From positions 1,612,001 to 1,676,000 of the forward strand of contig CP154954.1 of assembly GCA_039621445.1 (NCBI GenBank): 64,000 nt of DNA. Reading direction: 5' to 3'. A program made the translations under genes and the position numbers. Shown here piece by piece: positions 28,466-31,400 of the stretch (positions are counted from its first letter, which is position 1; each line of letters begins with the position of its first letter). Origin of the DNA: Euglena gracilis (taxonomy: Eukaryota). Under the pieces are notes generated by a model. The model searched no databases. It was given only the letters and a program-made list of their open reading frames with translations, and was not told the DNA's origin.

Positions 28466-31400
28466 TGATGGGAGTTGCTGGTGTTTTAGGTGCTGCTTTG
28501 TTATGTGCTATTCATGGTGCAACGGTAGGTGCTACTTGTTAATCTAATAATAATATTATATATGTGTTGTTTTTTTAGATTTTGGTGAAATTTAGTTAAA
28601 AATTCTTATTTATGTTTATGAAAATACTGTTAAATGTTTGAATAATTTATAGATGTATATAATTTGGTTTGTAATTTTCCAAATTAGTTATTAGTCTAAG
28701 AAGCGATTTTCAATTTTCTACTAAATATGAAGTTTGTCAAATAGATATGCTAAATATAGTTCTAGTCGCCATTTTGTACTTGAAGTGTATTTTACTTTTT
28801 TGCAATTATTTTAACTAACTAAATTCTTACCTTTTAAGTATGTTAATAATTTTTTGGTGTATATCTATATGTTGTTAGATTATATATATAAATAAGGAAA
28901 TCAAGTTTTTAATCAAAAGGATGGTTTAAAAAATTAAATAGTGTTGTTAGTATAAATTTTATGTATATTTACTTAAGTCACAGTTGTATAGTATCGAAAG
29001 TTTTCGCTTTTGTTTTAATTAAAAATTTTAGCTGAGTAGCTGTATGATTATAATTTTTCATGTACAGTTTCAAAAAAAGTTTTTTATTTTTTAATAAAAA
29101 TCAATTTTCTCAAAATACTATTTTCGAAGATGGGGATAGTCCAAATACATTTAGAGCATTTAATCCACTTCAATCTGAAGAAACTTATTCTATGGTGACA
29201 GCTAATCGTTTTTGGTCTCAAATTTTTGGTGTAGCTTTTTCAAATAAGCGCTGGTTGCATTTTTTTATGGGTACGGCTAATAGTATTCAGTTACAATACC
29301 ACGGTTATTCTATAGAGTAGAGTGGTCTCTTTGGTACAAGATGCGTATTTTTAATGCCGAAAAACAAATGTGTTTATTAGGAAAGTAGTTTAGAATAAAA
29401 ATTACAGTTGTGTAGTTATACGTTTTGCTACTTTAATAAATATGTGTTAAAAACCGTGAATGCTAGAAACCAATCTTTTATTTATTACTTTTTTATTTTT
29501 AAGAAATTTGACTTGGTTAATCTAATCATGTTTGATTTTTCTTTGCAAAATAAGCTTTGCATATTGGGTTAGTTATTGTACCTTGTAGTTATGTCGGTAA
29601 ATTAGCGTATTTTTAATTTGTAGTTTTTATGTGTAATTGAAAAGATCTTAGTAAAAATCAATAATTTTTTTTGGTTGAACGACAATGTGAAAAAGCAAAT
29701 GTTTTGAAATAATAGTTCAAAAATGACATGGAAAAGTTAAATACTTGATCATGCAATTATGCTAACGTTACATTAGCTCAAAACATTTTTTATGTTGAAT
29801 TCGGCAATTCAATTTTGTTTTTTAAAAGTTTATGTGAATTTTGATAAAAGAAGTTTTTAACTTTTCAATGTTATATTATATAATTTTATAGATTAATTTG
29901 ATATTTAGTATAAATTTTACTTATATTTTTTGTTTTTTAGTTTATAATAAGCGTTATGAACGTTAACTCATTTTTAAATTTTGAACGACCGTTTTACTAT
30001 TAATGCTTACTGTTTTCCTTATGTTAATAGATATAATATTCAATCTGTAAAAAATATTTTAATAGCTGATTATTTGAGTACAGAAATAATGTTTTTAAAA
30101 GATATACATCAATTTTTTCTTGGTTTTGTTATTACAAATACTATTATTGTTATTATAGGTCAAATAAACCTTCAGTTTAAAAATTCTTATAATATTGTAA
30201 GTGGTTTAAAAGTGCAGCAACTTGATTCTATTAAGTATTATTGTAAAGTATTAACGCACGATAGTAGTTGTTTGTTTTTTAGAAATTGTTTAGCTGTAAT
30301 TGATAGTATTATTGTTAATATTGACGAATATCTTTCATTATCTCCTTTTAAAAGACGAGAAAAGTTTTTACAAGATGTGGAATCTTTGAATAACCCTTCT
30401 GTGCCTGCTCGTTTATTTATAAATCCGAAAAAAGATTTTATTTTGATACATCGTAAGGGAGTATCTTTGAAGATTCGAAGTACTTTTCAAATGTATTCAA
30501 TTTATAAGTTTAATGTTTCAGTTAGTAAGAATGCAGCTATATTTAATACTTTAAGACCGAGTGATTTCATTTCTTTTTTAGAATATTATAGTGATATGAA
30601 CATTAATGAAATACTTATTAATGTTCTGAATAACTATGGATTAAATGATATTTCCTTGTTTTTGGTAAAAAAGATTTTTTATTTATTTGATTCAGATAAG
30701 ATTTTTTTTAATGAGTTTATAGGTGTTGATAGCGTTCCTTTAGAATATTTTTTATTTTTTTTATCAAAAAAGTACATTATTAGAGCAAGGAAAGAATCGC
30801 CTTTAAAAATATATACTGACTTTGAAGATTTTTACATACACGGTTCATTTAAAAATATTTTAAAAATGCAACAGCAAAAAATTAAACAAAACCTTGGTTT
30901 TAAAACAAAATCTAATTTTTTTACAGGAATATAGTTGTGGCAAATTTGAAAAAATTTTTGTGTAAATTTCGCACTAAGAAAATACGTAGAAGAGATAATT
31001 TTATGTTAATAAAAGTAAATTTTATGGAGCATTATCTTTTAAATAAACAATTTGAGTTAGCCTCTGCTATTAAATCAAGAAACAAAATTTTAATCCATAA
31101 ATTAGTATCTGATGTCTTAGTTTCTTATAATTCATTATGTTATGCTGTATACAAAACGTTGAAGAATTCGGATGATAAATCTTCATCGAATATTCAAAAA
31201 AAAAAAAAAAAAAAGAAAAATTTTTAAAATTTAGTTGATTTTTTAAAATTTTTTTTATTTAATTATGATTTTTATAAAATCAGATGTTTAAATTTATATT
31301 ATCTTCGCAATTTTATCGATTGCAAAGAACAATTCTTACACTTTCATTTTTTGGATATAGCTTTGCAAAATCTATATAGTTTTATATTTTTTCCTTTTCT

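Follow-up and report, generated by a model that had tools for sequence, protein, structure and literature searches.

ORF1 of psbD intron 8 in the Euglena gracilis plastid as the predicted, detached N-terminal module of a degenerate group II intron maturase

Introduction

Among the closest described relatives of the system presented here are the reverse transcriptase (RT)-maturases of cyanobacterial and chloroplast-like group II introns, which have the same domain order (RT0-7, X, D, En). Our subject is ORF1, an open reading frame (ORF) within intron 8 of psbD in the plastid of Euglena gracilis, together with the maturase-like frame that follows it. Both are located in a stretch of 64,000 nucleotides (nt) from GenBank assembly GCA_039621445.1 (contig CP154954.1, positions 1,612,001 to 1,676,000 of the forward strand), referred to below as the window. 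The window is AT-rich plastid DNA with a G+C content of 22%, its frames correspond to E. gracilis records, and all coordinates are window positions.

Euglena plastids contain ~160 introns, and a published count gives only three intron ORFs (PMC2396441); which proteins splice the other introns is a long-standing question. As reported there by Khan and Archibald (2008), three E. gracilis introns, two of them group II, hold an ORF and were “too divergent” to analyse. The EMBL annotation reproduced with Pombert et al. (2012) places orf281A and orf506 in psbD intron 8, gives the intron a length of 3658 nt, and calls both ORFs “hypothetical protein” (PMC3534033, supplement 2). Hrdá et al. (2012) counted orf506 among the E. 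gracilis-specific genes (PMC3308993). The euglenid plastid proteins mat1 (ycf13), mat2, mat5 and mat6 are also intron-encoded and often degenerate, and mat6 members with full RVT, GIIM and HNH domains occur in psbD or rbcL introns, according to the Maturyoshka preprint (10.1101/2021.09.24.461685). In the parts of that preprint considered here, neither an E. gracilis psbD-intron-8 maturase nor an N-terminal module is named. A description of the module was not found in the literature searched, the original Hallick-laboratory papers lying outside that search.

ORF1 is already known as an annotated gene, and its lack of an assigned function in E. gracilis was correctly noted in a first-pass annotation of the window. 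It is the same gene as orf281A (UniProt P31918, “Uncharacterized 33.0 kDa protein in psbD intron 8”, NP_041890.1, 281 amino acids (aa)); downstream, the gene order and the stop are also the same as in the orf281A/orf506 pair (P31918, P31921). The 318-aa protein AKL82344.1 from var. bacillaris falls into the same 90%-identity cluster as ORF1 and P31918. ORF1 shares 99% identity with P0001, which represents this cluster, and the two named records differ at one printed residue, F262 to L.

Results and discussion

ORF1 matches the front of a group II intron protein

The frames concerned are listed below.

29981..30934, + strand: ORF1 (orf281A / P31918), 317 codons plus TAG, from the ORF list and an exact look-up
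30937..32814, + strand: degenerate group II intron RT/maturase frame (orf506 / P31921) with a GTG start, in the -1 frame relative to ORF1
31225..31227, + strand: in-frame TAA, found in this window only, 10 nt after an A19 run (31196-31214)

The first-pass annotation placed the ORF1 stop 2 nt before the GTG at 30937, and direct reading of the junction (...ATA TAG TT GTG GCA...) agreed. The TAA splits the downstream frame into a 96-aa and a 528-aa frame. The three consecutive frames were aligned by BLASTP with P0008, an ORF of 902 aa taken from an EukProt transcriptome assembly, which carries the Pfam domains RVT_N (residues 313-381), RVT_1 (residues 408-629, E = 1.9e-43) and HNH (residues 831-874). 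All three align along P0008 in the same order:

ORF1 residues 45-259: P0008 residues 4-213, E = 6e-14
96-aa window frame, residues 26-91: P0008 residues 304-369 (RVT_N region), E = 4e-9
528-aa window frame, residues 42-513: P0008 residues 424-882, E = 7e-46

This ordered alignment indicates that ORF1 represents the front domain of the protein encoded by a group II intron and not a foreign passenger. In place of the proposed “orphan cargo” gene, we thus predict a conserved N-terminal module that has become detached from a degenerate intron maturase. The module adjoins the RT part 2 nt upstream in the window and is fused to it in P0008; in the P0004/P0014 pair described below, the adjacency is suggested by equal contig size. 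A Lys/Arg-rich linker contains both the ends of the free-standing module proteins (alignment A1) and the beginnings of the RT proteins P0015, P0016 and P0017 (alignment A3).

The first-pass annotation had also spoken of a two-component system. Two consecutive frames in one group II intron were indeed found, but the “components” appear to be pieces of one ancestral intron-encoded protein of the P0008 type. An independent passenger gene, with a role unrelated to the intron, would account for the separate stop of ORF1, the absence of RT or nuclease motifs, a composition unlike that of mat2, and the abundance of the intron RNA. Nevertheless, ORF1 matches the N-terminal ~210 residues of an RT/HNH intron protein, in the same order and with the same linker next to it, so the cargo proposal is not borne out. 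Among the five phmmer matches scanned with Pfam, only P0008 has domains, all of them RT or HNH. Moreover, a search with the module profile gave no ORF1 paralogue elsewhere in the window, including the mat2 and ycf13 frames (best other E = 0.12); in this respect, mat2 and ycf13 differ from the ORF1-type lineage. We consider an unrelated passenger very improbable.

Relatives of ORF1

An exhaustive phmmer search of 1.84 billion representatives returned ten proteins at E <= 1e-3, so ORF1 is not the orphan that it had been called. Four are clear relatives (E from 7e-34 to 1e-68), comprising three full-length free-standing frames of 281-313 aa with 32-42% identity and one fragment:

P0004: 313 aa, 42% identity to ORF1, E = 1e-68
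P0005: 224-aa fragment, 40% identity, E = 8e-41
P0006: 298 aa, 35% identity, E = 1e-38
P0007: 281 aa, 32% identity, E = 7e-34

Weaker matches were P0008, P0009, P0010 and P0012, and the tenth was the 4537-aa P0011 (E = 2.9e-4). None of the eight relatives whose clusters were looked up bears a functional name, and a Pfam scan of four module-only relatives gave no family. In a word-indexed protein search, ORF1 at near length returned its own cluster only, and the family alignment returned two matches only. The ESM Atlas gave no usable match for ORF1 or P0010.

For P0004 and for the 591-aa RT protein P0014, the source is in each case one Logan contig, 4258 nt long. The equal size suggests one shared contig, and the two-frame layout is probably common to this relative. 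Compared with E. gracilis, the module (P0004) and the RT part (P0014) diverged to a similar extent, with 42.0% identity over 307 residues and 42.7% over 599 residues, respectively.

We also examined 80 loci fetched with P0008, mostly cyanobacterial, which match P0008 residues ~313-880 at 26-37% identity. In 78 of the 80, the match begins only at P0008 residue 305 or later; L001 and L076 match from residues 278 and 292, i.e. from within the linker. When the six-frame translations of these loci were searched with the module profile, no match was obtained (best E = 0.09); in some loci, the sequence upstream of the P0008 match is shorter than 1 kb. The module therefore seems to be an addition of the present sub-lineage.

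Conserved blocks and predicted fold of the module

We define the module family, which carries no name, by ORF1 and the P0008-type proteins. ORF1 is similar to the other members over most of the domain and contains the blocks Q.L.S.KYY, HRKG..L.IRS and F.E.IG. Among the alignment columns with at least seven residues, 38 of 238 are identical in at least six sequences. The conserved segments are:

30101..30172, + strand: conserved hydrophobic helix, ORF1 residues 41-64, by the Kyte-Doolittle scale
30212..30256, + strand: conserved block Q..L.S.KYY..L, columns identical in 6-8 of 8 sequences
30398..30484, + strand: conserved basic block ...PARL...HRKGxxLxIRS, from the alignment
30698..30748, + strand: conserved block F.E.IGV..VP.E, aligned with “LLFNENIGV” of P0008

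Of nine sequences, 6-8 share residues H157, R158, K159, G160, L163, I165 and R166 of the basic block, and in the last block F243, I247 and E255 are identical in all seven. The ORF1 protein as a whole is basic (38 K+R vs 27 D+E).

The AlphaFold2 (AF2) model of ORF1, built from nine sequences, is mostly helical with a small sheet (predicted local distance difference test score (pLDDT) 76.2, predicted template modelling score (pTM) 0.77), and its residues 40-170 have pLDDT >90. Residues 41-64 reach a 19-residue Kyte-Doolittle mean of 1.89; at the aligned place, the value is 1.67-2.22 in six of seven relatives and 1.46 in P0012. The segment lies within a long helix, H36-67, with pLDDT ~ 90. A role as membrane anchor is conceivable, though not proposed here, for this segment, which is above the Kyte-Doolittle line of 1.6, yet forms a long helix in a confidently modelled AF2 helical bundle. 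For the fused P0008 (13 sequences, pLDDT 52.6, pTM 0.33), only residues 1-140 were modelled with confidence.

The fold gave no link to described structures. A Foldseek search of the PDB with the ORF1 model yielded no matches at E <= 1e-3, nor did a search of the viral models in BFVD at the same threshold. VIA-align against 48,161 chains gave a best Z of 4.4, with none at Z >= 5. The absence of RT, LAGLIDADG, GIY-YIG and HNH motifs, remarked on earlier, was confirmed for ORF1, since Pfam returned no families at E <= 1 and NCBIfam none. Across the nine alignment members, Pfam gave four single-member chance matches, none to homing endonuclease or RT families.

We also considered ORF1 as a duplicated RT fingers domain. 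The idea arose from the likeness of “PARL..HRKG..L.I” to RT1 and from a VIA-align match to 6me0_C (Z 4.3, root-mean-square deviation 3.3, 105 aligned residues), which is within noise. Alignment of the module and RT-protein profiles by hhalign gave a probability of 0.07%, and in consequence the module is not regarded as a duplicated RT piece.

Coding signal, gene model and start of ORF1

The intron has a G+C content of 23.5%, which corresponds to a stop probability of 0.091 per codon and gives P ~ 7e-14 for 318 open codons. In first-order Markov simulations of intron 8, none of 2000 sequences reached 318 codons, and the longest frame had 163. The G+C content of ORF1 decreases over the first, second and third codon positions (0.31/0.24/0.16), a gradient typical of coding DNA. 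The balanced composition noted in the first-pass annotation also held: F+K+N account for 27% of ORF1 vs 40% of mat2, 39% of the 310-aa frame at 17882, and 35% of the frame downstream of ORF1.

As delimited here, ORF1 runs from TTG at 29981, and the stop-to-stop extent is 29978-30934. The Swiss-Prot/EMBL model of orf281A starts at Met-37 and so omits 36 conserved N-terminal residues. Residues ~10-36, which precede the annotated Met-37, align with P0004, P0006 and P0007. Because of this conservation, the true start is likely to be ATT at 29978 or TTG at 29981, and the module would be translated from a non-ATG codon. A 15-codon, ATG-started mini-frame at 29956-30003 overlaps the ORF1 start in another frame.

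psbD intron 8 is a spliced group II intron

The host intron and its flanking exons are as follows.

29112..29268, + strand: upstream psbD exon (exon 8 in E. gracilis numbering), ending ...NKRWLHFFM, from translation and the RNA contig of run X2
29269..32925, + strand: psbD intron 8, group II, 3657 nt, from the RNA joint and the 3' domains V-VI
29269..29977, + strand: 5' portion of the intron ribozyme (709 nt), presumably domains I-III, with all frames closed
32855..32925, + strand: intron domains V and VI with an AGC triad and a bulged A at 32918, from Rfam RF00029 and RF04357
32926..33043, + strand: next psbD exon, starting LFVPVTG, from translation and RNA joints

The numbering of the upstream exon as exon 8 follows the EMBL annotation copy (PMC3534033, supplement 2). 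The joint 29268->32926 is present in a spliced RNA contig of run X2 at depth 292; it skips 3657 nt and reads ...FFM|LFVPV... The boundary is ambiguous by 1 nt, as 29270-32926 fits equally well. One raw read of RNA run X23 carries the same joint, and the run X2 contigs also hold the joints of both neighbouring introns, the joint 28528->29112 occurring together with 29268->32926. At the 3' end, RF00029 matched 32855-32925 with 43.5 bits (gathering score 40), and the domain V model RF04357 gave 52.8 bits (E = 8e-10, gathering score 53). The domain V-VI match and the exact RNA joint together identify psbD intron 8 as a spliced group II intron, and place ORF1 inside a psbD intron, as had been proposed.

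The 5' part (29269..29977) contains no ORF of at least 60 aa in any frame. It is presumed to represent domains I-III on the grounds of length and position; the Rfam D1-D4 models gave no match there at E <= 10. The RNA joint sets the 5' end of the intron as GGGUACG (29269) or GGUACG (29270). The GUGYG consensus is not present, and GUACG is found 1-2 nt inside the 5' end. Deviation from this consensus is a known property of Euglena introns.

The EMBL copy translates psbD across intron 8 as ...FFMVFVPV... (29266-29271 / 32924-32929) (PMC3534033, supplement 2), whereas the spliced RNA contig encodes the conserved D2 sequence, ...FFMLFVPV... The splice boundary in the annotation therefore appears to be off by 1-2 nt. 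A published table puts “psbD (Eg.8)” among the E. gracilis twintrons (PMC6207741). An Rfam search for a second domain V within 29270-32850 gave none at E <= 10, and the RNA contigs show no internal splice joint within intron 8. The EMBL annotation copy carries no twintron note for this intron (PMC3534033, supplement 2).

The intron RNA itself was also recovered. In run X2, an intron contig covering 29260-32920 matches the DNA gap-free at depth 146. The spliced exons have twice this depth (292), and the two neighbouring introns, in unspliced form, reach one eighth of it (17.7). In this one run, intron 8 RNA thus accumulates.

The downstream frame has lost its catalytic residues

The cluster that contains the downstream frame also includes P31921 (orf506), a 627-aa protein from nr and a 625-aa one from Logan; orf506 is shortened at both ends relative to the 625-627-aa frame. 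Pfam found nothing in it at E <= 1. The NCBIfam group II RT/maturase model TIGR04416 matched the E. gracilis protein P0017 with E = 1.8e-8 and 33.9 bits, P0014 with E = 1.6e-19, and P0015, P0016 and P0008 with E = 3e-63 to 3e-78, all below the 300-bit cut-off. The intact relative P0016 also matches 6ME0_C (named “Maturase reverse transcriptase” by its depositors) at E = 2.9e-63. P0014 is 42.7% identical to the E. gracilis downstream protein.

Alignment A3 shows what was lost. P0015, P0016 and P0008 keep PQGG, the xxDD motif and the HNH histidines, which both E. gracilis and P0014 lack. E. gracilis has DLNS where P0015, P0016 and P0008 have FLDD, FMDD and YADD, respectively, and FYYVVP where the intact proteins have IHHIKP or IYHIKP. 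Without the catalytic residues of RT and HNH, the E. gracilis protein can have kept no role other than that of a maturase in splicing, and in this it differs from the RT-maturases of the 6ME0_C type.

The loss also bears on the proposal that ORF1 is a decaying leftover, in which the protein was split by a frameshift and its front piece has ceased to be produced or required. Besides the missing RT and HNH residues, the absence of an ATG start in ORF1 is consistent with decay. So are the reported restriction of the intron site to E. gracilis (PMC6207741) and the description of most euglenid mat2/mat5 as lacking a recognisable domain (10.1101/2021.09.24.461685). Decay is, however, difficult to reconcile with a frame of 318 codons at 9.1% stops per codon, for which neutral persistence has the minute probability given above and no simulated counterpart. 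Furthermore, the three full-length free-standing relatives, at 32-42% identity, keep frames of 281-313 aa open, conservation is equal in the module and the maturase part (42.0% vs 42.7%), and the codon-position G+C gradient is coding-like. We judge decay unlikely.

The RT/maturase homology of the downstream frame, which the first-pass annotation had called maturase-like, was upheld by the match to P0008, but in the window this frame is not continuous. At the place of the TAA, four other protein versions (P0013, P0017, P0018 and P0022) have Q. The place was masked as a repeat in the read mapping, and the RNA contig is uninformative there. We attribute the TAA to a peculiarity of, or an error in, this assembly.

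The window has T where other versions have C or G at 30755, 31225, 31241, 31250, 31255 and 31260. The difference at 31225 was seen in protein records only, the remaining five in both the RNA contig (X2) and protein records. A 15.1-kb inverted duplicate of the psbC-psbA region (33001-48102 vs 63707-48592) is 99.63% identical, with 20 mismatches and 23 gap openings. We regard the duplicate as a probable hairpin-type artefact of assembly; no such 15.1-kb inverted repeat is known from the published map of the E. gracilis plastome. The mat2-like frame is a single 645-aa frame on the minus copy (58629-60566). On the plus copy (36259-38080), it is split where a K/F homopolymer stretch occurs, giving two frames that overlap, as would be expected if the assembly contained errors in homopolymer length.

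The junction between the two frames

One further feature is located at the end of ORF1.

30916..30922, + strand: T7 run, T_TTT_TTT in the ORF1 reading phase, the first 7 nt of a 19-nt overlap

The -1 (maturase) frame opens at 30916, after a TAA, and overlaps the ORF1 frame by 19 nt. T_TTT_TTT at 30916-30922 has the form of a -1 slippery heptamer (X_XXY_YYZ), in phase within the overlap. An AGGA is positioned 9 nt upstream of the GTG start at 30937. The second frame may thus be reached by reinitiation at GTG or by a -1 slip on T7, judging from the sequence of the junction.

Bicistronic or frameshifted genes are well known among retroelements, namely ORF1/ORF2 of long interspersed nuclear elements (LINE), retroviral gag-pol, and IS3 orfA-orfB. 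As in those elements, a first frame that lacks polymerase motifs (ORF1) directly precedes an RT frame; the two stand in a -1 relation, and a U-run occurs where they overlap. No sequence or fold similarity to those elements was found, and no stimulatory RNA structure. By analogy with gag-pol or orfA-orfB, a programmed -1 frameshift or transcript slippage on T7 would fuse ORF1 to the maturase frame, giving a free module and a module-maturase fusion of ~940 aa.

The just 19-nt overlap that starts with the in-phase heptamer agrees with such a slip. An in-phase T7 occurs in 1.6% of the 19-nt windows of this DNA, a fused homologue (P0008) exists, and the break is at the same linker position in several relatives. 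On the other hand, any in-phase XXXYYYZ heptamer occurs in 15% of windows. The 88 nt downstream (30923-31010) showed no sign of a stimulatory structure, with z = 0.19 and 110 of 200 shuffles folding at least as well. P0001-P0003 have the same T7 run and ORF1 stop, as does the RNA contig of run X2, which is gap-free and shows an unchanged T7 length, though contigs drop rare variants. The GTG with its upstream AGGA offers an ordinary alternative. Frameshifting or slippage on T7 therefore seems improbable to us.

Interpretation of the locus

With moderate confidence, we read ORF1 as the N-terminal accessory module of the psbD intron 8 protein. That protein would belong to a lineage of cyanobacterial-type group II intron RT/maturases carrying an extra, mostly helical and basic domain of ~210-270 residues before a Lys/Arg-rich linker and the RT. 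In one relative (P0008), the whole protein is a single chain of 902 aa. In E. gracilis, and apparently also in at least one relative of 42% identity, the gene would have been broken inside the linker, such that the module ends at its stop and the RT/X/En-remnant part starts 2 nt later in the -1 frame. The catalytic residues of the E. gracilis protein have disappeared and only the splicing role is left, the module being kept along with the maturase. The module may act with the maturase on the intron RNA.

Several observations weigh against the accessory module as proposed. The sole fused example, P0008, derives from a transcriptome assembly, and the placement of P0004 and P0014 on one contig follows from equal size. 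The relatives' DNA was not found in metagenome contigs, searched by protein and by a 34-nt window word, or in viral contigs, and genome contigs searched with P0010 gave no relative's DNA. Upstream of the conserved N-terminal region of ORF1 there is no ATG, so that an ATT or TTG start is required. The contig depths come from one run, in which an mRNA role, a stable lariat and slow splicing are indistinguishable. In the raw RNA runs X22 and X23, 3 and 4 reads, respectively, fell on the 5.3-kb stretch, and run X1 gave zero. A plastid proteome preprint reports the detection of 48 of the 67 plastid-encoded proteins (10.1101/573709). Finally, the intron site was reported as E. gracilis-specific (PMC6207741), and the intron could in that case be a recent, decaying insertion.

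A bolder proposal goes beyond the accessory module and is, as a whole, doubtful. Here, a plastid group II intron lineage would have a conserved two-cistron retroelement layout, with a helical, basic, RNA-binding or chaperone-like first cistron (“gag/ORF1p-like”) and an RT/maturase as the second, partly joined by a -1 slip on U7. The module would be needed for the splicing of psbD intron 8 and perhaps, in trans, of ORF-less Euglena introns. If true, the two-cistron module would be a group II intron protein domain without counterpart in the bacterial elements studied so far.

Conclusions

Nothing is overturned by these results, which amount to an annotation-level advance unless a frameshift or an accessory function is demonstrated. 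The gene model of orf281A is corrected, with the start 36-37 codons upstream of the annotated Met. What is new is that the two hypothetical frames of psbD intron 8 are linked to one cyanobacterial-type intron protein, whose front piece is a conserved domain that had not been described before and has a small family of its own. Group II intron proteins encoded in two frames are rare, and this locus would add one case. ORF1 gains a testable role as a maturase accessory module.

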